From an uncultured Pelagibacteraceae bacterium (GTDB taxonomy: Bacteria > Pseudomonadota > Alphaproteobacteria > Pelagibacterales > AG-422-B15): a DNA stretch of 64,000 nt. Positions 5,125-18,332 of the stretch are shown here, piece by piece (position 1 is the stretch's first letter; every line of letters starts with the position of its first letter). The notes under the pieces are model-generated. The model was not told the origin of the DNA and did not search any database. It saw only the letters and a program-made list of their open reading frames with translations. The translations under genes were made by a program, and so were the position numbers. The DNA lies in assembly GCA_902547315.1 (NCBI GenBank), contig CACCND010000005.1:20841-84840 (forward strand), in the 5' to 3' direction.

Positions 5125-5454
5125 TTAATCGTGAGAGATATTCTTTGAGTCAAGCACCTCAGCTAACTCACCACTTTTATGCATATCTAAAATAATGTCA
5201 CAGCCTCCTATGAACTCACCTTTAATATAGAGTTGAGGTATTGTTGGCCAGTTAGTAAAGTCTTTGATGCCTTGGCGGAGTTCATCGCTTTCAAGGATAT
5301 TAACATCCTTGTAATCAATATTCATAAAAGAAAGCGTATTTACAACCGCATTTGAGAAACCACATTGTGGCTGATCTTTAGTACCTTTCATGAATAGAAC
5401 AACATCATTTTTATCAATGATGTCTTTAATGTTGCTTTGAACCGTTTCATTCAT
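5125..5454 (-). CDS. grxD: monothiol glutaredoxin (Grx4/GrxD family)
   Basis: CGFS active site (PQCGFSN) and the [19 protein letters not shown] signature. 109 aa. Confidence 0.9.
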
Positions 5455-5502
5455 AAAATAAGAATTAACTGCTTTTTAAATTTATTCAATAAGAAAAATT
5501 AT

Positions 5503-6291
5503 ATGAAGAAAATTGCCTTTTGTTACGACTTTGATGGAACGCTATCAAGTGGAAATATGCAAGAACAAGATCTTTTACCAGACTGCAACATTACTCCAGA
5601 AAAATTTTGGGGCGAAGTAATTGAAACATCAAAAAATATCAAAGCTGATCCTGTACTTATGTACATGCATCTTTTGCTTGAAAAGATGAAGAAGGCCAAA
5701 ATACCCATTACCCCTGAAACATTTAATCAGTATGGTCAAAAATTAAAATTATTTAAGGGTGTCGATACATGGTTTGATCGCATGTCATCTTTTGGATTAT
5801 CTAAAAATATTGAAATTGAGCATTATATTATATCAGCAGGAATAACTGAGATGATCTATGGCTGTTCTTTTTCTAAAGCAATAAAACAAATCTATGCATG
5901 TTCATACTATTACCGAGAAAATGGAGTTGTGTGGCCAAAGCTTTCAGTAAATTTCACCGCGAAAACACAGTTTTTGTATCGTATTCATAAAGGGACTTTT
6001 GAAATGTCTGATCAACATTCCGTCAATGCTAAGGTTGAAGAAGAAAATATCAATATTCCATTTAACCATATGGTTTTTTTTGGTGACGGTGAAACTGATA
6101 TCCCTTCTTTTAGAATTGTAAGTGGGGGAGGTGGATGTTCAGTCTGTGTTTATGATCCCTTTAAAGAGAAATCAAAAAAAATTGCTAATCAATTGGTTCA
6201 AGATCAGCGAGTTCAACATGCTGTAAAAAATGATTATTCCGAGGGCGAGGAATTGGATACAGTAATTAAAAATTTCATTTTATCTCTCTAA
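5503..6291 (+). CDS. HAD-superfamily hydrolase (phosphatase-like)
   Basis: Motif I is YDFDGTL, motif II is IISAG, and motif IV is FFGDGETD. I chose the start at 5503 (MKKIAF...) because the 5437 start in the track overlaps the grxD 5' end. Confidence 0.65.
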   Translation: MKKIAFCYDFDGTLSSGNMQEQDLLPDCNITPEKFWGEVIETSKNIKADPVLMYMHLLLEKMKKAKIPITPETFNQYGQKLKLFKGVDTWFDRMSSFGLSKNIEIEHYIISAGITEMIYGCSFSKAIKQIYACSYYYRENGVVWPKLSVNFTAKTQFLYRIHKGTFEMSDQHSVNAKVEEENINIPFNHMVFFGDGETDIPSFRIVSGGGGCSVCVYDPFKEKSKKIANQLVQDQRVQHAVKNDYSEGEELDTVIKNFILSL

Positions 6292-6398
6292 ATAAGTATT
6301 TATCAAATATTACTTATTAAAATTAGTAATTTTAATTTCTATAAAATTATGTCAGGATATCTTCGTACAAAATTATTCAATTTATTAGGAGTTAAATT

Positions 6399-6704
6399 AT
6401 GCATGTAGACGAAGTAATTAAAAAATTAGGTGAGCACATGGAAAAGGTACTTGAAGAAGATGCAGATGCATTTAATTGGGATGTTAAGAATAAAGTTGTA
6501 AAAGATGTTGTTAAGCTTGAAAAGCTTGGAAAGATTTTTAGCGAAGAACAAATCGAAGAAATGGAATACTACGATCTTTTTGCAGAAGGGCATAATTTTG
6601 ATGAAGCAAAAAAAACTTCTATAGTAGTTTCATTAATTTTTTGGATGTGCGCTCATACAGACATTGAATTTCCAGATGACATAAGAGACTGGGATCCCCG
6701 TTAG
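6399..6704 (+). CDS. hypothetical protein (101 aa, acidic)
   Basis: ORF only; no recognisable motif. Confidence 0.4.
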   Translation: MHVDEVIKKLGEHMEKVLEEDADAFNWDVKNKVVKDVVKLEKLGKIFSEEQIEEMEYYDLFAEGHNFDEAKKTSIVVSLIFWMCAHTDIEFPDDIRDWDPR

Positions 6705-6746
6705 AGATGGGATTCTTAAGCCTTCTTAAGGCGTCAAGTTCAATAA

Positions 6747-6779
6747 ATGAAGTTAAATACGGACTTGTTTAAATTATGA
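6747..6779 (+). repeat. mini-ORF / relic MKLNTDLFKL*, homologous to the 5' end of the 7254 gene
   Basis: ATGAAGTTAAATACGGACTTGTTTAAATTATGA. A 37-nt alignment with 8088-8125 has 6 mismatches, and it aligns with 7254-7280. Confidence 0.6.
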
Positions 6780-6795
6780 ATAATAAAAGGTCAAC

Positions 6796-7242
6796 ATGGT
6801 AGGTTTTGAAATCAATGCTCAAATAAATTGTTACTCCTTTGAGGATGATAATCTTGATGACGGGCAACTAAAAATAACAACCATGTATTTTGATGATGGC
6901 ACTGTTTTATTAGACTCAAGTTATTACCAAACTAAAGCAGAAATTGAGAATGAGGGGAATAAGTGTATAGAAGGCACATTTATTCACACGAAAGATGATG
7001 GAACGGTTTTAACTGACTGGAGTTGGGATACAGTATCAGAGTTTGATGGTACTCAAAAAGACTTTATGGTAGCACCACAGGGTGAGGTATTGTTTGAAAC
7101 TGATCATGACTTAGAAGAAGTTAAAGCAATTTTGAATAAAACATGTGATGTAATATCAGTAAGCTTAGTGCTTGAGGCAGGGGGTCAAATTGATATGAGC
7201 ACAACACAACTTTCTGATTGCCAAATTAGTAAAATTAAATAG
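6796..7242 (+). CDS. hypothetical protein (148 aa, acidic)
   Basis: ORF only. It is preceded by a 10-codon mini-ORF (6747-6779) homologous to the 5' end of the next gene. Confidence 0.4.
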   Translation: MVGFEINAQINCYSFEDDNLDDGQLKITTMYFDDGTVLLDSSYYQTKAEIENEGNKCIEGTFIHTKDDGTVLTDWSWDTVSEFDGTQKDFMVAPQGEVLFETDHDLEEVKAILNKTCDVISVSLVLEAGGQIDMSTTQLSDCQISKIK

Positions 7243-7253
7243 TAGAACTGAAT

Positions 7254-8057
7254 ATGAAAGTTAAAACTGATTTATTTGCACACGTTGGTGTTGTCAAATC
7301 ACAAGAGCTGTCTGGCAATTTCACGCATGAAATGCTTTATGAATTTCCAAGTTATTCGATATATTTCTCAAGGGAGACCGGTCAGGGTTTTATTTATGTT
7401 TCCTTTGCAATATCTTCGCCCGATACTTTCAACTCACTCATATTTTTAAATTGTTCAGATATGGAAGAAGCTGATGAATATCTGAAAAGCGATGAAAACC
7501 CTGAACCTAGTATATACATGTGTTTAAATCAATTAATTAAGATGGTTTATGATCCTGATGCAAACCACTTAAAATTAAATCCTCCTCTTGTGGATCAATT
7601 TACTGAATATTTCTGTAATGATGAAGGTAGAAAATTCTCCCGTTTCTATAACACTACTACTGAAACAAATAATGATAAATTAGATGCAGACGAAGCTTTT
7701 CCGGAATTGCTTTGCGGTTACATTTCAGACTTTATATTATCTGGTAAAACAGACACTTCGGAATTTCCAAACTGGGATACTGAAGGTGTTTGGCTAAAAG
7801 GTCTTACAGAAGTATCAAATGATGGTTGGATAATTGGTAGTGATAGGGATGGTTTTTTTGTGCTCAAGAAAGATATTGAAGCTGAAATAGATACTGAGAC
7901 CAAAACAGTGACTATTAATGGCAATGTTTATGATGGCAGCACAAGTAAAACTGAATTTGATACAAATCCTGATGCACCTGAATATCTAGATGTCGTTTTA
8001 AACGACGATGTTTTTGATGTTCAATCGTTATCAGTTTTATATTTCGCTAAAAAATAA
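7254..8057 (+). CDS. hypothetical protein (267 aa, acidic)
   Basis: ORF. Its first 9 codons (MKVKTDLFA) and a C-terminal segment (KTEFDTNPD) both recur elsewhere in the island as fragments. Confidence 0.5.
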   Translation: MKVKTDLFAHVGVVKSQELSGNFTHEMLYEFPSYSIYFSRETGQGFIYVSFAISSPDTFNSLIFLNCSDMEEADEYLKSDENPEPSIYMCLNQLIKMVYDPDANHLKLNPPLVDQFTEYFCNDEGRKFSRFYNTTTETNNDKLDADEAFPELLCGYISDFILSGKTDTSEFPNWDTEGVWLKGLTEVSNDGWIIGSDRDGFFVLKKDIEAEIDTETKTVTINGNVYDGSTSKTEFDTNPDAPEYLDVVLNDDVFDVQSLSVLYFAKK

Positions 8058-8087: not shown

Positions 8088-8117
8088 TTGAAGTTAAATA
8101 CTGACTTGTTTGCTTAA
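8088..8117 (+). repeat. mini-ORF / relic (TTG)KLNTDLFA*, whose stop overlaps the DUF4116 start (TAATG)
   Basis: TTGAAGTTAAATACTGACTTGTTTGCTTAA. Homologous to 6747-6779 and to 7254-7280 (ATGAAAGTTAAAACTGATTTATTTGCA). Confidence 0.6.
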
Positions 8118-10165
8118 TGAATAAAGAAGAAGCTTTAAAACTTGTAGAAGAAAACGGTTTTGAATTAGAAAATTTATCTGGTGAATTAAAAAAAGATAGA
8201 GAAGTTGTCCTTGTGGCAGTTCAGCAGAATGGACTCGCTATTCAATTTGCAGAAACAAGTTTACAATGTGATAGTGAAATTGTTTTTTCTGCGATTGAAA
8301 ACTTTCCTATGTCTTTAGAGTATGTTTGTGATGATTTTAAGAAAGATCGTGAATTAGTATTAAAAGCAGTAACTATTGATGGTTATGCGCTTCAATATGC
8401 TGATCAAATACTTTTTAAGGATAAAAAGATTATCCTTGAAACACTGAAAACCGCAAGCCTATCTAATATGATTGATCACATAGATAAAAATTTACTAAGC
8501 GATTATGATATAGCATTAGCATCAGTAAAACTAAACGGTAGTGATCTGGAATATATTGACGAATCATTAAGAAAAGATGAAGAAATAGTTACTACTGCGA
8601 TTAAAGATTCATCCTTTGCATTTGAGTATGCCGATGAATATTTTAAAAAAAATACAAAATATTTATTATCTATTATTAATGAAGATAATTTTATAACCAT
8701 ACAATCACATCTTGACCAAAGCGTTTATAGCGATAGGGATTTTGTAACAAAAACTATCGATTTTGGATTAGATATATCGCTTTTAGATAAGAAATTTTTA
8801 AAGGATGAGAATATTGCTACAATTGCTGTAAAAAAAGATACAAGCTTTTTAGAATATTTTGATCAATCAATAAAAAAAAATAAAGATATAATCAAAAAAA
8901 TACTAATTGAAGATAGCTATGCTTTTGAATTTGTGGATGAAAGTATCAAAAAAGATAAGGAATTTATTTTATCTTTAATAAATGAAGACAATTATTATTC
9001 CTTTATTAATTATATAGATGAAGAGTTATTTAAAGATAAAAATTTTATTTTAAAATTAATTCCGTTCGGATTGTCAGTAGATAAAGTAGATACGTCACTT
9101 TTAGATGATCTAGAAATTGCTAAAATGTTGATTAAAAAAGATGGATACGCATTTGAAAACTTTGATGAAAACATAAGATCAAATAGAGATATCGTAATTG
9201 ATGCTGTAAAATATTCAGGATCATTAATTCAATTTACGAATGAAGAACTAAAAAATGATATTGAAATTGCTAAAACTGCATTAGAAAATGACGGCTCCTG
9301 TTTAGAATATACGGGTGATAATATTAAAAATAACAGAGAATTAGTTGAAATTGCATTGAAACAAGATGGCAGTGCCTTAGCATATGCTAATGATATATTT
9401 AAAAATGACAAAGTTCTTGTTGCATTAGCAATGAATAATTATTCAAATGCGTTTCAATATGCTAGTGATGAAATAAAAAAAGATAAAAAATTTGTTTTAG
9501 AATGTTTAGATAGTGGGAAATCTTTTTTGAGTTACGTTCCAACAGAATTACAAAAAGATAAAGATGTTGTCTACAGTGCAGTAAAAAGCAATGGATTTGA
9601 GCTTCAATATGCAGATGAACAATATAAAAAAGATAAGGAACTAGTCTTAATAGCAATTAATTCAAATTGGAGCTCTTATCAATTTGCAGATGATAAGTTA
9701 CAAAATGATAAAGATGTATTGAATATTTTAGAGAGTAATGAAGATTACATAAAAGAAAAGAATGTTAAAAAAATACATTTAAATTTAGAGAAATTTTTTG
9801 ATATGCTGATTGAAAACCATGAAGATTATTTCAGGGAAGAAAATACATTTAAAGTCAGACCTGGAGTGGCTTATGATAAATTTTATATTAATCAGATTGA
9901 AGGATCATATGATATGAGCCTACAAGGCTTAATACATCACTATTTATGGGAAAATGAATTATACCATTTATTTCTAAGCGATGAAGAATTAGAGACTTGT
10001 GAACAAGTTGTTAATGAACAACCAGAATATATTTTTGGGCCTGATAGTGGTGAAACCCAAGAAATAATTGATGAAATACAGGCAAAGGCAATAAAATTCG
10101 TAGGTAAAAAACTCATTAAGCTAGGCTTTGATGTCGAACAAGATTTTGAAAGTTATTTGAGTTAA
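8117..10165 (+). CDS. DUF4116 repeat protein (about 20 tandem ~30-aa repeats plus a unique ~135-aa C-terminal domain)
   Basis: Repeated unit of the form L/F-K-K-D-[KR]-E-[IV]-V-L-x-A-V-x-x-N-G-x-A-L-x-Y-A, for example LKKDREVVLVAVQQNGLAIQFAE, FKKDRELVLKAVTIDGYALQYAD and YKKDKELVLIAINSNWSSYQFAD. Confidence 0.7.
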   Translation: MNKEEALKLVEENGFELENLSGELKKDREVVLVAVQQNGLAIQFAETSLQCDSEIVFSAIENFPMSLEYVCDDFKKDRELVLKAVTIDGYALQYADQILFKDKKIILETLKTASLSNMIDHIDKNLLSDYDIALASVKLNGSDLEYIDESLRKDEEIVTTAIKDSSFAFEYADEYFKKNTKYLLSIINEDNFITIQSHLDQSVYSDRDFVTKTIDFGLDISLLDKKFLKDENIATIAVKKDTSFLEYFDQSIKKNKDIIKKILIEDSYAFEFVDESIKKDKEFILSLINEDNYYSFINYIDEELFKDKNFILKLIPFGLSVDKVDTSLLDDLEIAKMLIKKDGYAFENFDENIRSNRDIVIDAVKYSGSLIQFTNEELKNDIEIAKTALENDGSCLEYTGDNIKNNRELVEIALKQDGSALAYANDIFKNDKVLVALAMNNYSNAFQYASDEIKKDKKFVLECLDSGKSFLSYVPTELQKDKDVVYSAVKSNGFELQYADEQYKKDKELVLIAINSNWSSYQFADDKLQNDKDVLNILESNEDYIKEKNVKKIHLNLEKFFDMLIENHEDYFREENTFKVRPGVAYDKFYINQIEGSYDMSLQGLIHHYLWENELYHLFLSDEELETCEQVVNEQPEYIFGPDSGETQEIIDEIQAKAIKFVGKKLIKLGFDVEQDFESYLS

Positions 10166-10207: not shown

Positions 10208-10780
10208 TTAAGATATTATAGTTGATAAATTTTTTTTGAAATGAGCACATGCTTCATCAAGTGCTTCAACTGAATAACTCTTTTTTTCAATTATTTCTGT
10301 TTCTTTTTCCTTTGAACGAACCTGTCTTAATAGTACTTCTAAGAAAGGCTCACTATCTGCAGTGCTTTGCTTATAAGCTAATTCGCTACTTACTGCATCC
10401 ATATTTTTATAAGAGATATATGCGCACACATGACTAGTGCCGTTGATCTGGTCTCCGCCAACTTTTACGTGCGATCCAACTTTATTATTCGACCAATCGT
10501 ACTCTTCAGTCAATTCAGATAAAATACCTTTAAGTTTTTCTCTGGCCGCAGCATCTTTGCTACCAAACATCTTTTTAGCACGCTTTGGATGTTTTGCTCT
10601 TAGCGTCTTTTCAAGCTGATCAATCAAAACCTCTTTTTCGTATTCAGTAATCGTTTTGTTAGAGATAATATTGTTGTAATAATTTAAAAGTTCCCTATCA
10701 ATATAATCTTTTTCTTTTATGTTATTTAACACTCGCTTAACTATATCTGAAATTTCTTTGGAATTGTTATTGCTGTTCAT
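10208..10780 (-). CDS. hypothetical protein (190 aa)
   Basis: ORF only. Confidence 0.45.
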   Translation of the reverse strand: MNSNNNSKEISDIVKRVLNNIKEKDYIDRELLNYYNNIISNKTITEYEKEVLIDQLEKTLRAKHPKRAKKMFGSKDAAAREKLKGILSELTEEYDWSNNKVGSHVKVGGDQINGTSHVCAYISYKNMDAVSSELAYKQSTADSEPFLEVLLRQVRSKEKETEIIEKKSYSVEALDEACAHFKKNLSTIIS

Positions 10781-10859: not shown

Positions 10860-10916
10860 TTTTATAATGATTGTAGTGCTAGAAAAACTGAATTTGATAC
10901 AAATCCTGATGATATA
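10860..10916 (+). pseudogene. in-frame relic of a 7254-family C-terminal segment fused upstream of the 10917 ORF
   Basis: 10884-10911 is a 28-nt exact copy of 7947-7974. The translation FYNDCSARKTEFDTNPDDI aligns with VYDGSTSKTEFDTNPDAPE of the 267-aa protein. There is no start codon in the relic. Confidence 0.6.
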
Positions 10917-12175: not shown

Positions 12176-12724
12176 TTATGAAATTTCAATTGTTGATATA
12201 GCTATTGCGGTTGCAAGCTTTGAATCATCAAATAAAATATTCGGATCTTTGATCTCTATCTTGGCATTTTCCCTAGAAAAAGTATTAGATCTTATTCTTA
12301 TTTGTAATCTATTTTCAGGAAAGCCCATATCTCTATTTAATTGAATCCACTCATTGATATGTGTTTCAATCCATTTATAATTAAAAGGAGCACTATCAAT
12401 ATCTTCGGCTTCATCTTCAAAAATTCCCTGAATCATAGTCAGAGTATCCTGAGCCAAATTATCATTTATTTTCAATTTTTTTGAAATAGCTTTCCTTAAA
12501 TTGGGTACTGCTTCATTGTAAAAGTCGCCAACTTCAAACTTTTCTAAATTTTTATCAAAACTAATATATGCATTTCCGTCATTATCTTCAGCAATTATAA
12601 AGGAATAAATTGGCCCTTTAGCTCCATTCGATGGATCTTTCTCAAACCATTGTAAGTATACATTGTCCTTTGGTTTAGGTGCAAAAATATAGACTTCAGC
12701 TACAGATCCTTCTTTAATTTTCAT
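12176..12724 (-). CDS. hypothetical protein (182 aa)
   Basis: ORF only. It lies 39 nt downstream of the 12764-13558 gene on the same strand. Confidence 0.45.
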   Translation of the reverse strand: MKIKEGSVAEVYIFAPKPKDNVYLQWFEKDPSNGAKGPIYSFIIAEDNDGNAYISFDKNLEKFEVGDFYNEAVPNLRKAISKKLKINDNLAQDTLTMIQGIFEDEAEDIDSAPFNYKWIETHINEWIQLNRDMGFPENRLQIRIRSNTFSRENAKIEIKDPNILFDDSKLATAIAISTIEIS

Positions 12725-12763: not shown

Positions 12764-13558
12764 TTAATTTGAATATCTATTCTTTAAGAATTCTAGTATT
12801 TCACTCGTTTCTTTTGAAGAAAAGTAACTATTACGTGCTGTATTTTTATCTCTTAATAAAACATTTTTACTTTTTGTTAAATCCCAAAAACTAGATTGAC
12901 GCCAAGAGAATATAATGATTTCACCTCTGTGAGCTTTAGGTAACAAGTACTCATGAACTAATCTTTTATTCATCCTGCTGGAAGGTAACTCTTGAGGTTT
13001 GAAGTACGGTGTTCTTGTTGAATGATATCCAATTGATTCAAGCAGACAAATACTCTTTTTGATTTTATTAAAACTTTCCACATAACTAATATCTTTTGCT
13101 AAAGAATACTGATCGATAATATTTTTAAATCTATTTTCTGTTTTCCAGTATTTATAACCACCTGTATTTTTTGATACTTCGTCTAAATATAAGAAACCAT
13201 CAGATGCAAAATTTAATTCTTGATTTAATTTTTTTATATATTTTTGATCATGATGTTCATCTTGATAATCACCCAATGCCAAACCTGGATTACCGTATAA
13301 AATAAATATTGAAGCTTGTTCAATGTTTCCTGTAAAGGGTTTACAGTACATATTTGTATGGATTGCTTTAGGATCAAATTGAGATTGAAAGTCTTGATCA
13401 TTTTCTTTATTTTTTAGATTATTTGAATATTTCTGAGTAAAAAAATTGATATCAATATTCACCAATTTTTTATCGTTAGAACCAATTTCCTTTTCATCAT
13501 CGGGATGAAGTTGATAAGGAATATACTTTTTCCAAAATTCTTTATATTCATTAAGCAT
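12764..13558 (-). CDS. hypothetical protein with UDG-superfamily-like motifs; distant paralog of 10917-11831
   Basis: IFILYGNPGLALG (compare MUG GINPGLSS), ICLLESIGYHS, EIIIFSWRQS and ARNSYFSSKE. These four motifs occur in the same order and with similar spacing as in the 304-aa protein. Confidence 0.4.
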   Translation of the reverse strand: MLNEYKEFWKKYIPYQLHPDDEKEIGSNDKKLVNIDINFFTQKYSNNLKNKENDQDFQSQFDPKAIHTNMYCKPFTGNIEQASIFILYGNPGLALGDYQDEHHDQKYIKKLNQELNFASDGFLYLDEVSKNTGGYKYWKTENRFKNIIDQYSLAKDISYVESFNKIKKSICLLESIGYHSTRTPYFKPQELPSSRMNKRLVHEYLLPKAHRGEIIIFSWRQSSFWDLTKSKNVLLRDKNTARNSYFSSKETSEILEFLKNRYSN

Positions 13559-13602: not shown

Positions 13603-14082
13603 TCAAACCTCTAATTTATACTCAATTACGATAAAAGTCCTGAAATCCTTACCTTCGGTGTAAGTTTTGTTAAAAACCACTTTGTATTGATTAATGCTTT
13701 GTTCCAAGATTTCATTACTTTCCTCTGAATTATATTTGATGTCTGTTCCTTTATCTGTTTCTTTAGAAATTTGACTTTCTTTTTTCACAATGGTCGAGCT
13801 TACAATATCAGCAACAGCAACTTTAGCATCTAATACAGCTTTCGATTTAGATAATTTAAGATCCGCACTTAATCCAATACCACAGCCATATATTTTTTTA
13901 GTGTCAGCTTTGAATTGATTGCATACTCCGTCATAAATTTTGATGATTTCTTGGTCATTATTGATCATCGTTTTGGATTGGGCAAAGTCCAAATTTTTGT
14001 CAACTGAACTGCATGCTGCTAATAGCCCAGTTATGATAAGTATAACGTTTATTTTAAGTATTTGATTAATTTTAAAATTCAT
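13603..14082 (-). CDS. lipoprotein (possibly LPP20-like)
   Basis: Signal peptide with lipobox LLAAC|SS. The Ala/Val-rich segment KAVLDAKVAVADIVSS resembles LPP20-family proteins. Confidence 0.5.
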   Translation of the reverse strand: MNFKINQILKINVILIITGLLAACSSVDKNLDFAQSKTMINNDQEIIKIYDGVCNQFKADTKKIYGCGIGLSADLKLSKSKAVLDAKVAVADIVSSTIVKKESQISKETDKGTDIKYNSEESNEILEQSINQYKVVFNKTYTEGKDFRTFIVIEYKLEV

Positions 14083-14094
14083 TTGTTTACTCCT

Positions 14095-14349
14095 TTATAT
14101 ATGTTCTAGTAGAAAAATTACTGACAAAAGAAATGCATTTTCAAATTCTTCATCTGTCATGAATTCAACTACAAAGTTTTTCTTTTTGAGATCTATGGTT
14201 TCTTCACAAGTTTTAACTTCTGTGCGTTGAACAATGACCCCATTTTCAGTAATTGTTTGGGTTCTGTAATTGCATTGATCTGCAATCGATGTTGATTGAG
14301 TAAGGATTAATACCAGAGCAATCAAAGAAGACAAAAAGTAATTCTTCAT
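14095..14349 (-). CDS. small exported or membrane protein (84 aa)
   Basis: N-terminal signal peptide (LIALVLILTQSTSIA|DQ) and a hydrophobic C-terminus. It lies 12 nt upstream of the lipoprotein gene. Confidence 0.4.
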   Translation of the reverse strand: MKNYFLSSLIALVLILTQSTSIADQCNYRTQTITENGVIVQRTEVKTCEETIDLKKKNFVVEFMTDEEFENAFLLSVIFLLEHI

Positions 14350-14423: not shown

Positions 14424-14909
14424 ATGTCCAAAATAAGAAACATTAATTCAATTGAAAGTGCTGTTGAATATGCAATTAAGTCTGTGGGCGTTAAAGATTG
14501 CATAGAGTCAATTAAAGATCTTACAGCTCAGAATAAGAGTGAGTCAGCAATCTATAAGTGGAGCGACCCAGATACTGATCAAAATATTCAGTATCGATTT
14601 GCAATTGCTCTAGATATAGCTTGTCTTAAAAAAGGCATCAAGCCCCCTATGCTCTCAATTCATCAGGAGATCTTAGACAGTAAAGTTATTTCTGGATCAA
14701 ATGAAAAATATGATCTTATAAATGAATTGCTAAAAGTGAATTCAGAAATAGGAGTACTTAATAATTCAGTCGAAAGCTCAACAAGAGATGATAGTGATGA
14801 AGGGGCAAAATTAAGTCCAAGAGAACTTAGTGAAATCAAAGATGTTCTTTCAAGCGTTGAAAATAAACTGAATAAACTAAAAGCTTCTTTATTTCAAGAA
14901 AGTGAATAA
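14424..14909 (+). CDS. putative DNA-binding regulator (HTH-like N-terminus, coiled-coil C-terminus; layout reminiscent of phage CII/CP76-type proteins)
   Basis: First gene of the five-gene module. ...NKSESAIYKWSDPDTDQNIQYRFAIALDIA... resembles an HTH followed by a recognition segment. Its stop overlaps the next start (TAATG). Confidence 0.3.
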   Translation: MSKIRNINSIESAVEYAIKSVGVKDCIESIKDLTAQNKSESAIYKWSDPDTDQNIQYRFAIALDIACLKKGIKPPMLSIHQEILDSKVISGSNEKYDLINELLKVNSEIGVLNNSVESSTRDDSDEGAKLSPRELSEIKDVLSSVENKLNKLKASLFQESE

Positions 14910-15601
14910 TGGCAAAACCTCAAATCAAACCTCCTTATAAACTTAGTCCGTCCGGATTCAAGTTTGGCTATGAGAACTGCAAGCGTTGTTATTATAGAGG
15001 TATCCGCGAAGGGTTGAGTGAGCCAGGGGGTTTTCCAAGTGTGTTTTCTAAATATGACGTGGTTCATAAGAAATCAACAGTTGGAATGAGAACAACAGAT
15101 CTAATTCCTGATATGCCAGAAGGAACTTTTATAAAAGGACCTGGAGATAAATTTTTAGAGTCAACGAATATTGATTGTGGGGGGAATAATGTTGGATATA
15201 TATCAGGTAAAGGAGATGCTTTTCTTGAATTGGATGATGGATCGTTTGCAGTGGTTGATTTTAAAACATCAGCATTGACACAAAAAGGTGCGCTCTCTTA
15301 TTCATCTCAACTTCATGCATATAAATATGCCTTAGAAAATAATAAAGAAGATAAACCTAGACTGAGTCCGGTAACAAAACTTGGTATCATTTCATTTGTA
15401 CCAGATATTGATTTAAGCATGAAGAAATTAAAAGATGATATTTTCTCAATAGAACATAAAGCAAGTTGGTTTGAAGTGCCAATCGATGATAAATGGTTCA
15501 TGGGTTATATCGAAAAGATTATAAAACTTGTTGCTGATGATAATACACCTGAAACGAAGCCGAATTGCAAGGCATGTGATTACCGAGAAAAAGGTAAATA
15601 A
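14909..15601 (+). CDS. RecB/Cas4-family PD-(D/E)XK nuclease with four-Cys cluster
   Basis: SPSGFKFGYENCKRC, GKGDAF (motif II Asp), VVDFKTS (D-x-K), QLHAYKY (QxxxY) and a C-terminal CKAC. The Cys arrangement is 2+2. Confidence 0.7.
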   Translation: MAKPQIKPPYKLSPSGFKFGYENCKRCYYRGIREGLSEPGGFPSVFSKYDVVHKKSTVGMRTTDLIPDMPEGTFIKGPGDKFLESTNIDCGGNNVGYISGKGDAFLELDDGSFAVVDFKTSALTQKGALSYSSQLHAYKYALENNKEDKPRLSPVTKLGIISFVPDIDLSMKKLKDDIFSIEHKASWFEVPIDDKWFMGYIEKIIKLVADDNTPETKPNCKACDYREKGK

Positions 15602-15626
15602 GAATTGAAGAATACTTTACGCAAAT

Positions 15627-15641
15627 ATCTCTTGAAGAGAT
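15627..15641. promoter_or_regulatory. perfect 15-nt palindrome ATCTCTTgAAGAGAT in the only spacer inside the five-gene module
   Basis: Read directly from the sequence. With 7-nt arms and a single central base it is too tight for a hairpin, so it looks more like a dimeric protein-binding site. Confidence 0.35.
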
Positions 15642-15683
15642 CAAAAATGATGTTGATAATGACTTATGAAATAAATTTGTCAA

Positions 15684-17042
15684 ATGTACGAAAATATAAG
15701 TAAAATTGTTCAATATAAAAATACAATAACCAGGAAATATATTTCAATCTCAGATAATGAAATAGATCCATTGCCAAAAGAAAAGTATTGGATTTCAAAA
15801 AAATATGATGGTCAACTATGGTTTTATTGCAAATCAGAGAATTCTTCTAAAATAATAAATACAAGTGAACGGGACATTTCAGATATTGTAATTGATATAA
15901 AAAATGAGCTAGACCAAAAATCAAAAAAATTAAAAAAATTAATTCTTGCTGGAGAACTTTACTCTTTAGAAAATGATCGGGAACGTTACGGTGATACTAT
16001 TTCGTGCCTAAGCAATAAATCCAAAGTAAAACAATTAAGATTTGGTATTTTTGACATTATTTTATCTGATAAATTATTATCAACCTTTGAAGATAAATAT
16101 AATTTTCTAGTTAAAAATATAGGAATTGACAGCCAGCAGCATGCTCATGTGATTGAGCATGTTCATATGGATCAAAAAGATATTAAGAAAATATTTAAGG
16201 ATAAAGTTGAAGTAAACAATGCAGAGGGGATTATAGTTCGGAATGATACTAGTATTTATAAGGTTAAAAATGAAGAAACTGCTGATTTTTTAGTCACAGG
16301 GTATACATTAGATGATAAACCCAATGAGATTAGGTCAATATCACTTGGAGTCTTTCTTAATGAGACAGAAATCGTACATGTTGGATCATGTGGAAATATA
16401 TCAAAGAACTTAAACAAAGATTTATTTAAAAAACTTACTAAAATTAAAACTAACTCTAACTTCCAAAAAATTGCATCGAATGGGTCAGCTTATAATTTCG
16501 TTAAACCAGAAGTAGTTTGTGAAATAAAATTGTTAGATTTTCAAGGCGATAAGTCAAATGATGATCCAATTAGGCACCTAAAGTTTGAATATTTAAATAA
16601 CTCGTTAAACGCTACAGGAAGAGCAAGGTCAATTTCAATATTAAATAGTACCTTGATAAATATTCGAGCAGACAAAGACGCCAGCTTTGATGACTGTGGA
16701 CTTGAACAACTATCAAAAATAACTGGAATGAATAAAGATCAATTTGAGGAACTCACAATTGATGAAATACCTAAAAGCAAATTAATCAAAAAAGAAATTT
16801 TAAAAAAAGAGAGTAAAAAAGGGATAGCAATTAAGAAGTTCATGTTTTGGAAAACAAATAAAGAGCAAGTAGCTGATTACCCATCATATCTTTGTTATTA
16901 TCTTGATTATTCTGAGGGCAGAGGTGATCCCATAAAGAGAAAAATGTATCCTTTTGAAGATGAAAAATTAGGCATAGCTTACTTTGGAAACCTAGTTGAA
17001 AGTAATTTTAAGAAAGGTTGGGAGAAACATAATGGCGCGTGA
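15684..17042 (+). CDS. ATP-dependent DNA ligase family protein with an extra C-terminal domain
   Basis: Motif I is KYDGQL, III is LAGELY, IIIa is FGIFDI, IV is EGIIVR, and V is YKVKNEETADFLVTGY. OB-fold signatures are SISLGVF...VHVGSCGN and FVKPEVVCEIK. A further ~120 aa contain no recognisable motif. Confidence 0.8.
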   Translation: MYENISKIVQYKNTITRKYISISDNEIDPLPKEKYWISKKYDGQLWFYCKSENSSKIINTSERDISDIVIDIKNELDQKSKKLKKLILAGELYSLENDRERYGDTISCLSNKSKVKQLRFGIFDIILSDKLLSTFEDKYNFLVKNIGIDSQQHAHVIEHVHMDQKDIKKIFKDKVEVNNAEGIIVRNDTSIYKVKNEETADFLVTGYTLDDKPNEIRSISLGVFLNETEIVHVGSCGNISKNLNKDLFKKLTKIKTNSNFQKIASNGSAYNFVKPEVVCEIKLLDFQGDKSNDDPIRHLKFEYLNNSLNATGRARSISILNSTLINIRADKDASFDDCGLEQLSKITGMNKDQFEELTIDEIPKSKLIKKEILKKESKKGIAIKKFMFWKTNKEQVADYPSYLCYYLDYSEGRGDPIKRKMYPFEDEKLGIAYFGNLVESNFKKGWEKHNGA

Positions 17043-17631
17043 ACTTATCCTTAGTCTCAACAGAAAAAGCTCAACTTTTGCAATCTCTAAAGTCGATAGA
17101 AAAAAATTGTATGGATATAAGAAGAGAACTTATCTTGACGAAAAAGGAATTGAATGTTCGAGGGCTAATTTAGAAGAGGAAACTGGAATTGTATTTGAAA
17201 GTGGTGATTATAATAGCTGTTATCTTGATAATAATGGTAATTTTATTGAAACAAAAAATCTAGAAGCGATAGATGACAAAGGAAAAGTCGTCAATCGCAA
17301 AGAATCTACTTTAGGAAAAGAAGTTGAGTTATCAAATTTATCTGTTGAGGATGCCCTAAATTTGAAGGTCAATTCAGTATATTTACTAGAACCGAAGGAG
17401 TTTGATAAGGATTTGAAGTCAAAGCTAGACGAAGGGGAAATATATAGTTTTCCATTTAATTACTATGCTGATTTTAAATTAGAAGATGCATTAATTCTTA
17501 AAGGTGAAAAGGATTATTATGCACTTATAGGCAGAAAAACAGAATGTACTTGGATGGGTGAAGATAATGATAATCTACCTAATGAGGTTGAAGAATTTGA
17601 AGACGATGATTTAGATTTTGAGATGATGTAA
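17032..17631 (+). CDS. hypothetical protein with an SSB-like acidic C-terminal tail
   Basis: I chose the start at 17032 (MARELIL...): it has GGGAGA upstream and overlaps the ligase stop by 11 nt. The protein ends EEFEDDDLDFEMM (compare the SSB C-terminus DDDIPF). Confidence 0.5.
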   Translation: MARELILSLNRKSSTFAISKVDRKKLYGYKKRTYLDEKGIECSRANLEEETGIVFESGDYNSCYLDNNGNFIETKNLEAIDDKGKVVNRKESTLGKEVELSNLSVEDALNLKVNSVYLLEPKEFDKDLKSKLDEGEIYSFPFNYYADFKLEDALILKGEKDYYALIGRKTECTWMGEDNDNLPNEVEEFEDDDLDFEMM

Positions 17632-18332
17632 TGACAACTGCACTTAAAGAAATACATATAGAAAATGAAAAAAAAAGAGATGCCAATGTTAAGTTTGTCT
17701 CATTGATCAGGGAAAGTGACCCAAAACTAGCCCATCAGAAAAAAGTAGTAAGAAGTAAAAGATTATTAATTGGTAGTGATCAGACTTCAGAAAATAATCT
17801 TGTGGAAAAATATAAGGACAGTTTAGTAGACAATATATTAAGTAATGATGTTGATATCGATATAGAATTAGCGGGTAAGTTTATAGGAGATACAGATAGA
17901 ATTTTATTCAATTCAAAAAATGAAATTCTCTATTATCCGCCTAAAACTAAAGAAGTGTTGTTTGATAAAGAAGGAAATGAGATAAAAAAACAAGATCCTA
18001 AGGAAATAATTCCAAATGTTAGAGATGATACACCACCCCTTAAATGGACTGGTAAATTTTTTAAAAGAAACGATGTATTAAAAAAATTTGTAATTAATAA
18101 AAGTATTCAATTAAGACATACTGATGGATTAACTTTTGAATTTTTATACGATATGGCAAAAACACTAGATGATAAACAAAGTCTGATGTTTTTAGGAGGT
18201 GGTAAATCTGGAAAGGAACCTTTGATTTTTCAAACAAATGGAAGCCCTTATCGGGGATTTTTGGATGGGAGAATAAATAAAAATAAATATCAATTAATTT
18301 TAAGATTAAGCAATATGGAATTAAAAAGGTAG
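17631..18332 (+). CDS. hypothetical protein (233 aa), last gene of the module
   Basis: Its start overlaps the preceding stop (TAATG). No recognisable catalytic motif; GGGKSGKE is not a valid Walker A. Confidence 0.5.
   Translation: MTTALKEIHIENEKKRDANVKFVSLIRESDPKLAHQKKVVRSKRLLIGSDQTSENNLVEKYKDSLVDNILSNDVDIDIELAGKFIGDTDRILFNSKNEILYYPPKTKEVLFDKEGNEIKKQDPKEIIPNVRDDTPPLKWTGKFFKRNDVLKKFVINKSIQLRHTDGLTFEFLYDMAKTLDDKQSLMFLGGGKSGKEPLIFQTNGSPYRGFLDGRINKNKYQLILRLSNMELKR

Follow-up and report, generated by a model that had tools for sequence, protein, structure and literature searches.

Accessory ATP-dependent DNA ligases are common in bacteria, and most of them have no assigned pathway. The described systems closest to the one considered here are the Ku-LigD pathway of non-homologous end joining (NHEJ), the operon in which LigB is encoded together with Lhr-Core, a metallophosphoesterase (MPE) and an exonuclease, the LigC-PrimPolC base-excision hub, and a large bacterial group of NT-OB ligases (nucleotidyltransferase and OB domains) that carry a WGR domain. 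This last group is given as being of unknown function in the review by Williamson and Leiros (2020; PMC7470946); WGR domains of other proteins are described there as RNA-binding, and the pathway of the accessory bacterial ATP-dependent ligases is named as an open question. The present work deals with a ligase locus from an uncultured Pelagibacteraceae bacterium, contained in a stretch of 64,000 nucleotides (contig CACCND010000005.1, positions 20,841 to 84,840, assembly GCA_902547315.1) that is referred to as the window. At this locus an ATP-dependent DNA ligase gene (LIG) is followed by the genes P4 and P5, and these three genes, rather than the five contiguous genes to which they belong in the window, are the invariant cassette. 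The chances are about even that the trio is a self-contained module for Ku-independent sealing or joining of DNA breaks. In the literature consulted, which covered Ku-independent end joining, DUF4116, ligases of SAR11, WGR ligases and defence systems that contain a ligase, the cassette is not described.

The five genes of the window and the main spacer between them are the following:

14424-14909 (+): P1, 161 amino acids (aa), acidic, with a coiled-coil C-terminus and a match to phrog_38866
14909-15601 (+): P2, Cas4/RecB-like PD-(D/E)XK nuclease, 230 aa, PF12705, with CxxC...CxxC cysteines
15602-15683 (+): spacer of 82 bp from the nuclease to the ligase gene, with a palindrome and sigma-70-like hexamers
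15684-17042 (+): ATP-dependent DNA ligase, 452 aa, DNA_ligase_A_M and DNA_ligase_A_C, trio member
17032-17631 (+): P4, 199 aa, acidic (isoelectric point, pI, 4.5), with an acidic tail, trio member
17631-18332 (+): P5, 233 aa, basic (pI 9.4), no annotated family, trio member

The five open reading frames (ORFs), all on the forward strand, can be read directly in the sequence as the initial annotation had reported them, and so can the TAATG start/stop junctions at 14907-14911 and 17629-17633, the overlap of 11 nt between the ligase gene and P4 (ATGGCGCGTGA, 17032-17042) and the 74-bp spacer that splits the block from the divergent leftward genes.

Loci related to this one were gathered from species-representative genomes (16 loci) and metagenomes (80 loci), and all their ORFs were searched with iterated profiles; individual loci are cited below by L numbers. 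Co-occurrence was counted over 103 related loci bearing P5, many of the SAR11 ones being close relatives of each other. P5 is present in the 103, whereas 88 have P4 and 85 have the ligase; P4 or the ligase is missing from some loci because the contig ends there. A locus was taken as testable when it had at least 2.1 kb on the left and at least 1.5 kb on the right of P5, and the complete ligase, P4 and P5 trio was found, with its genes adjacent, in 39 of the 39 loci of this kind. The three genes are strictly co-inherited. Two arrangements of the cassette (~2.6 kb) occur over an overall G+C content (GC) of 25-74%: LIG-P4-P5 in 21 loci, which are low-GC and SAR11-like, and P4-P5-LIG in 17, which come from elsewhere, on contigs of 28% to 74% GC. 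Metagenomes from oceans and lakes contain the trio in abundance, and it is present in SAR11.

The surroundings of the cassette, on the other hand, change from locus to locus. Within SAR11 itself the chromosomal site differs, the trio being located beside purL in the window and beside lpxB in L004. Its neighbours vary between loci, and the trio must therefore be considered autonomous, given how greatly its flanks differ. The first long contigs that were obtained (L002, L003 and L004) keep ligase-P4-P5 at 58-76% identity without an adjacent nuclease; a homologue of P1 is lacking in L004 and lies ~3-4 kb away, on the opposite strand, in L002 and L003. Among the 103 loci surveyed there is no second one with all five genes adjacent, nuclease homologues being found in 7 and the P1 family (CII-like) in 14. 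The proposal of an unnamed module is thus upheld for the trio and fails for the five-gene unit, which does not recur outside the window, an outcome that the initial annotation had itself named as refuting it.

The idea that the five genes form one co-adapted operon, in which the nuclease and the CII-like protein would be obligatory, has been largely refuted by this survey and is regarded as quite improbable. It draws on the single strand shared by the five genes, on the translational coupling of P1 with P2 and of the ligase with P4 and P5, and on the nuclease gene that directly precedes the ligase in four of the six other loci that have it (L006, L009, L010 and L012). The remaining two are arranged otherwise, as one gene separates the nuclease from the ligase in L008, and in L051 the nuclease gene is found two genes upstream of P4 and on the other strand. 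Besides, five of these six nucleases share only ~28% identity with the window copy, far less than the 66-83% found for the trio, and both extra genes are absent from most trios. The 82-bp spacer is the boundary between the optional P1/P2 pair and the trio. It holds a perfect palindrome of 15 nt (ATCTCTTGAAGAGAT, 15627-15641), which could be an operator or a hairpin, and the sigma-70-like hexamers; scans for promoters and terminators gave matches no commoner than those in shuffled sequence.

The two optional genes can be described separately. The nuclease scores 32.6 bits against PF12705 (PDDEXK_1; cut-off 22), and its GKxDA, DFK and QLxxY motifs and its CxxC...CxxC cysteines are conserved in 7 homologues, so that the PD-(D/E)XK nuclease with a 2+2 arrangement of cysteines proposed at first is well founded; that Pfam score and the conserved GKxDA, DFK and QxxxY place it in the PD-(D/E)XK superfamily. 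Cas4 models of PADLOC match it down to 3e-10, and the Cas4 equivalog TIGR00372 does so with 31.2 bits against a cut-off of 65. In some SAR11 lineages this nuclease accompanies the trio as an optional accessory. The only family match of the window P1 is phrog_38866 (2.6e-9), of unknown function in PHROGs. The helix-turn-helix (HTH) once attributed to this 161-aa protein has not been borne out beyond a weak signal, since the CII family Phage_CP76 (PF06892) matches three of eight P1-family members (best E 0.0055) and does not match the window protein. All 14 loci with P1 homologues have the SAR11-type gene order, with variable distance and strand: the homologue is directly upstream of the ligase in L030-L032, fused in register to the ligase start, a point in favour of the five-gene operon, and elsewhere it is 2-8 kb off on either strand. 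A relative of P1 is also found on two IMG/VR contigs. P1 is an island gene whose association with the trio is loose and confined to SAR11.

The ligase matches the Pfam families DNA_ligase_A_M (6.4e-11) and DNA_ligase_A_C (3.1e-6), both above the cut-offs, and consists of a nucleotidyltransferase domain (residues ~30-200) followed by an OB domain with motif VI (R328-x-D330-K331). Motifs and Pfam scores together assign it to the ATP-dependent DNA ligase superfamily. Of 58 full-length family members, at least 55 retain motifs I, III, IIIa, IV, V and VI, the conserved residues being K40, D42, G43, E91, F123-D124, E181-G182...R186, K193-x-K195 and R328-x-D330-K331, a conservation which argues that the family is catalytically competent. 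The leucine noticed earlier in place of the arginine of motif I is a family-wide trait (KxDGxL), as the motif reads KxDGx[LIT] throughout and the usual KxDGxR is not kept. Four curated NCBIfam ligase models were matched by the window ligase, all of them far below cut-off; the closest is the LigD ligase domain TIGR02779 (5.6e-19, 68.5 bits against a cut-off of 227.75). Sequence and profile searches against PDB chains gave nothing significant for the ligase or for its C-terminal domain.

In the enzyme, motif VI is followed by a variable linker and then by a conserved basic domain of ~85 aa (~365-450). The extra domain of ~120 aa first described was drawn too long, for it included motif VI of the OB domain and the linker, and the conserved basic domain within it is real. 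Its marks are W389-K-T-N-K393, D408-x-S410-x-x-R413 and K443-K-G445-W446, with K393, D408, S410, R413, K443, G445 and W446 invariant, and its consensus reads ...WKTNKE...YVVHWTDYSxGRKDPLxREVR...IKKGWE (median pI 9.6). It resembles WGR in a terminal strand, a helix and a KKG[YW] ending, and a local hhalign comparison of 58 C-terminal domains with 11 WGR sequences gave a probability of 51% (E 1.5e-4, 59 columns). The domain is possibly WGR-like, as far as these alignments indicate.

A ligase of this type could also act on RNA, and the trio would then be a module of RNA repair or modification that reseals, for instance, cleaved tRNAs. The ligase does match Pfam RNA_ligase through its nucleotidyltransferase domain, at 9.9e-6 and just short of the cut-off; WGR domains of other proteins bind RNA according to PMC7470946; and a separate RNA_ligase gene and a PTH2 gene lie within the L106 cassette. 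However, the best matches are to DNA ligase families, including the LigD ligase domain mentioned above, the OB domain has a motif VI typical of DNA ligases, the neighbouring genes encode DNA enzymes (UmuDC, SbcCD and RecBC), and the trio is not accompanied by any conserved kinase/phosphatase or Hen1-type healing enzyme. An RNA substrate is accordingly rated as very improbable.

P4 has 226 close homologues, nearly all of marine metagenomic origin and labelled hypothetical, and it found no match in Pfam, NCBIfam, PHROGs, PADLOC or PDB sequences. Its C-terminus (...EEFEDDDLDFEMM in the window, ...DDLDFEMF in the family consensus) is acidic, with a median charge of -11.5 over the last 25 residues. 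The motif D-F-x-M (D195-F196-x-M198) is invariant across 23 diverse homologues, and the SSB-like acidic tail recognised at the outset is in this way confirmed; there are few other invariant positions, among them R23, Y27, G28 and D36. In SSB and T7 gp2.5, tails of this kind serve to dock partner enzymes and are in competition with DNA. Searches of the 23 P4 members at E values up to 10 gave no SSB or OB family, and there was none in PDB sequences either. A P4 homologue in L104 (8777-9988) carries an FGE-sulfatase domain between halves 1-101 and 305-403, and the tolerance of this insertion shows that P4 consists of two separable halves. P4 is probably a non-catalytic adaptor.

P5 has 385 close homologues, which are likewise nearly all marine-metagenomic and labelled hypothetical. 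An exhaustive hidden Markov model (HMM) search of 1.84 billion representatives gave 427 clusters at 50% identity, of which 294 fall below 1e-10. The core of the protein matched no family in 49 diverse members, and P5 matched nothing in Pfam, NCBIfam, PHROGs, PADLOC or PDB sequences. The consensus contains the motifs PLxWTG, QLxHxDGLTYDFL and PYRGFLEGR...LHLSNLELK, and the family has a median pI of 8.9. The invariant polar residues are few (D73, Q160, H163 and E230), which argues against an enzyme, and P4 and P5 both lack conservation of an enzyme-like kind. About 10 of 15 longer P5 members bear Lys/Ala/Pro-rich, H1-like tails (e.g. PAAKK and KKKASKKK repeats) and one longer member carries a SAM domain. 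P5 probably binds DNA, an activity supported by its basic pI and by the H1-like tails.

One P5 homologue, P0289 (381 aa), is joined to the C-terminal domain of the ligase alone (...AVRKLLVWCTHK...HWTDYSPGRKEPL...VKGW), without the nucleotidyltransferase or OB core. It is either a Rosetta-stone fusion or the result of a deletion or an assembly artefact, and it hints that P5 and the C-terminal domain of the ligase work together. As for other identities of the two partners, the initial annotation had raised Ku, RecT/Erf and canonical SSB, and no such match was obtained for P4 or P5; neither RecT/Erf nor Gam families were found for them. P4 and P5 were also considered as paralogues of each other, a relationship for which hhalign gave 4%, so that the two are not detectably related.

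These features can be arranged into a scheme of break sealing. P5 would bind DNA at or near the break, and P4 would serve as an adaptor or regulator, its tail docking on the basic surface of the ligase C-terminal domain or on that of P5. This tail may mimic DNA until a break is engaged, may recruit the ligase, or may hold the ligase off until DNA displaces it, in the manner of SSB and T7 gp2.5. A physical link between P4 and the ligase is supported by their complementary charge, the P4 tail being at -11.5 and the ligase C-terminal domain at pI 9.6. The basic, possibly WGR-like domain would sense the break or anchor the complex, and the ligase, whose motifs are observed and whose activity is predicted, would seal it. 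Where they are present, the Cas4-like nuclease, a helicase-nuclease fusion or RecBC/SbcCD might trim the ends first. The window would then represent a case in which the Cas4-like nuclease and a CII-like putative regulator were recruited upstream, giving a lineage-specific operon of the type 'trim, then seal' in a flexible island. The complete proposal, namely an unrecognised Ku-independent break-joining or sealing system made of a WGR-like break-sensing ligase and two proteins from new families, one a factor that binds DNA and the other an adaptor whose acidic tail is SSB-like, spread horizontally through uncultured aquatic bacteria including SAR11, is tentative and is held with clearly less than even confidence.

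The break-repair reading is supported by the genes that recur beside the trio in separate lineages (UmuDC, nucleases, the helicase-nuclease fusion, SbcCD-RecC-RecB and WGR proteins), with which the earlier guess of an end-processing and resealing pathway also agrees. The arrangement umuD-umuC-nuclease-LIG-P4-P5, on one strand, is found in L006 (umuDC at 1111-2764), L010 (umuDC at 5480-7133) and L012, all from one SAR11 sublineage, and in L007 umuDC is upstream of LIG with a DUF4116 gene in the place of the nuclease; umuD was identified by its match to E. coli UmuD (3e-21) and umuC by its IMS domains. Near P4-P5-LIG there recurs a protein of 1,160-1,190 aa in which RNase_H_2 and SF1-helicase domains are combined with an N-terminus weakly resembling Cas4, encoded immediately after the ligase in L085, L092 and L095 and two genes downstream in L110. 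Two loci of 67% GC (L104 and L105) have the order P4-P5-LIG-SbcCD fusion-RecC-RecB on one strand. Small stand-alone WGR proteins (69-110 aa; closest PDB entry 2ra8, 1.7e-11) occur in 10 loci, and their genes are divergent from the trio and abut it in L039 (387-596, -), L085 (1979-2209, -) and L095 (6061-6291, -); another is found in L004 (6687-6896, -).

Proteins with DUF4116 repeats are the commonest immediate neighbours of the trio (cluster c3 contains 72 genes in 35 loci), and the window protein of this kind (8117-10165, +) has 16 repeats (E 3e-133). Their recurrence beside the trio in distant lineages (L104:7049-8512 and L111:4511-5524) suggests a functional link with this family of unknown function. 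SAR11 islands also contain DUF2779 (PD-(D/E)XK-like) and RNase_T genes, which likewise fit a break-repair context. L110 has an McrB-like ATPase and a WYL/WCX regulator near the trio.

Three further observations were made around the cassette. An acidic protein of 121-128 aa without family match (cluster c12) is encoded divergently from the ligase in L002 (7663-8028, -), L003, L005, L008, L014, L034, L036 and L038; its start is ~25 nt from that of the ligase, and the ligase promoter must therefore lie within the c12 gene. A HAD-like gene (window 5437-6291, +) recurs at 49-56% identity in L002-L004, L007, L014, L017 and L019, within or beside other SAR11 trio islands, which suggests a related chromosomal neighbourhood despite rearrangements. 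Finally, L106 (9356-15736, 59% GC) shows P4-P5, a 180-aa gene, an RNA_ligase-family gene, PTH2, a radical SAM gene, two small genes and then the trio-type ligase, 3.5 kb downstream of P5.

Some of these neighbours are also typical of defence islands (nucleases, the McrB-like ATPase and the WYL/WCX regulator), and this weighs against the break-joining proposal together with several other results. The independent lineages that supply the repair contexts are modest in number, and many SAR11 loci are closely related. No SOS box (GTTC-N7-GTTC) was found near the operon or upstream of 63 cassettes. AlphaFold2 models built from alignments of close SAR11 homologues were unusable both for P4 (predicted local distance difference test, pLDDT, 34) and for P5 (pLDDT 45), and the roles proposed for these two proteins derive from sequence comparison. 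The likeness of the C-terminal domain to WGR is merely suggestive: Pfam WGR (PF05406) matches one of 19 members weakly (E 0.17) and not the window protein, and hhalign against a single WGR protein gave 8.6%. Comparison by hhalign with a Ku alignment gave 0.3% for P4 and 0.5% for P5, the Ku set being mycobacterial only, which limits sensitivity. Besides, the ligase homologues of L022 (7465-8922) and L023 (7331-8788), from contigs of 72% GC, align end to end and keep the C-terminal domain, and they lack the motif I lysine, with PLVAG in place of KxDG; the P5 of these loci bears a 275-aa tail of the PAAKK type. The loss of this lysine implies that sealing may not be the sole role of the trio.

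The defence-like neighbours lead to a different explanation, in which the trio belongs to a system directed against phages or plasmids, or is a repair companion that deals with the self-damage of such a system; the ligase would reseal host DNA, or P4 and P5 would sense foreign DNA ends. It fits the hypervariable low-GC islands and the patchy occurrence within SAR11, and it accounts for the Cas4-like and DUF2779 nucleases, the SF1 helicase-nuclease fusion, the McrB-like ATPase and the WYL/WCX regulator, as well as for a weak Colicin_Pyocin immunity match nearby. PADLOC 2.0, however, gave no match for the ligase, P4, P5 or P1, its only matches being those of Cas4 models to the nuclease, and to our knowledge no described defence system has a ligase core. 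The sole invariant enzyme of the trio is the ligase, which has no conserved toxin or abortive-infection effector at its side, and the UmuDC, SbcCD and RecBC neighbours are housekeeping repair genes. A defence function is regarded as unlikely, though less so than the other alternatives.

It could likewise be thought that the cassette serves a mobile element or a prophage remnant in circularisation, end protection or recombination, as phage ligase/SSB modules do. This would be in keeping with the PHROG match and the weak CII likeness of P1, with the differing chromosomal sites and two gene orders of the cassette, with the phage-like set of small ORFs and inserted RNA ligase of L106, and with a distant trio on one viral contig (L021), the only match among the 2.9 million contigs of IMG/VR. 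Against it, tblastn of P4 and P5 gave no match in 50,697 phage records or 72,556 plasmids, and a viral scan with the P5 alignment found no viral contig, while the same alignment recovered more than 519 metagenome loci. The window locus showed no integrase, no structural gene, no att-like direct repeats flanking it and no adjacent tRNA, and other loci are flanked by ordinary chromosomal genes. A role in mobile elements is regarded as improbable, and the suggestion of a domesticated phage recombination module is not supported for a trio that is nearly absent from phage, plasmid and viral collections.

Regarding the window itself, the five genes are the right end of a low-GC stretch of ~12 kb (0.27-0.31 versus ~0.34), in agreement with the island setting proposed initially. 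The stretch is bordered by the HAD-like gene and a glutaredoxin gene on the left and by purL-purQ-purS-purC on the right. The closest relatives of the studied genes are found in Pelagibacteraceae single-cell genomes and in one metagenome-assembled genome (MAG) of 'Candidatus Pelagibacter sp.', and the host is thus almost certainly a member of SAR11. Two pairs of direct repeats are located inside the island, 7930-7974 / 10867-10911 (45 nt, 87%) and 6748-6783 / 8089-8124 (36 nt, 86%), the second of them immediately ahead of two gene starts, as if a promoter or ribosome-binding site (RBS) segment had been used twice. A pair of small proteins encoded at 14095-14349 (-) and 13603-14082 (-) has apparent signal or lipoprotein-like N-termini, the larger one with a weak LPP20 match (E 0.0017), and recurs with its order kept in at least nine other SAR11 islands at 29-44% identity. 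The 190-aa protein encoded at 10208-10780 (-) is the one with the weak Colicin_Pyocin immunity match (E 7e-4, just below cut-off). The two genes once called UDG-fold-like (uracil-DNA glycosylase; 12176-12724 and 12764-13558) have no such match in Pfam or NCBIfam.

The interest of the trio lies in its being a compact, co-inherited set with two partner families that have no annotation in any library searched. SAR11 is the most abundant marine bacterium, and we know of no end-joining pathway in its streamlined genomes. If the trio does join or seal breaks, it would be a second bacterial end-joining route besides Ku-LigD, it would bear on the survival of ultraviolet (UV) and oxidative damage in streamlined plankton, and it could become a small three-protein tool for genome engineering. 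Should its function instead be in defence or in a mobile element, it would likewise be new as a system of that kind built around a ligase. The question is directly testable because the cassette is small (~2.6 kb) and there is a clear prediction for each part.

When the trio is compared with the known systems, a parallel to its organisation is provided by Ku-LigD NHEJ, where an accessory ATP-dependent ligase is likewise found beside small non-catalytic protein(s) and end-processing enzymes. The core of the trio ligase is closest to the LigD ligase domain, and the H1-like basic tails of P5 homologues recall mycobacterial Ku, in which PF07382 often stands beside PF02735. P5 resembles Ku in this tail only, since the mycobacterial Ku proteins retrieved often carry it. 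The Pfam model of Ku (PF02735) matches neither the window proteins nor any of 23 diverse P4 and 49 diverse P5. An identity of P4 or P5 with Ku, entertained from a resemblance of patterns by eye and from the H1-like tails, finds no support in Pfam or hhalign. There are further differences: no PrimPol or phosphoesterase (LigD_N) domain was found, the partners are two instead of one, and the trio ligase has its own basic C-terminal domain, with 61 bits against a cut-off of 373 for the LigD model TIGR02776.

The NT-OB-WGR ligases share with the trio enzyme a minimal nucleotidyltransferase and OB core with a small appended domain, possibly WGR-like in the trio, beside which small WGR proteins recur. 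The OB domain of the trio nevertheless matches DNA_ligase_A_C, whereas that of the group described in PMC7470946 is OB_2, and the part of that review considered here mentions no partners similar to P4 or P5. With the Lhr-Core/MPE/exonuclease (LigB) operon and the LigC-PrimPolC hub the trio has in common an accessory ATP-dependent ligase placed amid repair partners; unlike in those systems, no Lhr-type helicase, metallophosphoesterase or PrimPol came up when the five genes and some of their island neighbours were scanned against Pfam and NCBIfam, and the trio ligase is without the N-terminal DNA-binding domain of LigB-type enzymes. That the locus is neither Ku/LigD, nor an Lhr-ligase cluster, nor a listed defence system, as had been stated before, agrees with the negative outcome of Pfam, NCBIfam, PADLOC and hhalign.

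As regards the separate proteins, P4 has a short, invariant acidic C-terminus with an aromatic residue, as SSB (DDDIPF) and T7 gp2.5 have. It differs from SSB in an acidic body and in its motif, D-[LFI]-D-F-[EDG]-M-[FML] instead of D-D-D-I-P-F, and L018 has, close to the trio, a separate gene for a canonical SSB with DDDIPF. The window nuclease is similar to Cas4/AddB-type nucleases in its RecB-like motifs (D, DxK and QxxxY) and flanking cysteines, and unlike Cas4 it has these cysteines as 2+2 (CxxC...CxxC) instead of 1+3 and scores below the equivalog cut-off; no cas genes were identified among the ORFs adjoining the five genes, CRISPR arrays not having been specifically searched. Taken as a whole, the trio groups with the ligase-centred repair operons represented by Ku-LigD, Lhr/MPE-LigB and LigC-PrimPolC, and it does so with partner proteins that are unrelated to theirs.

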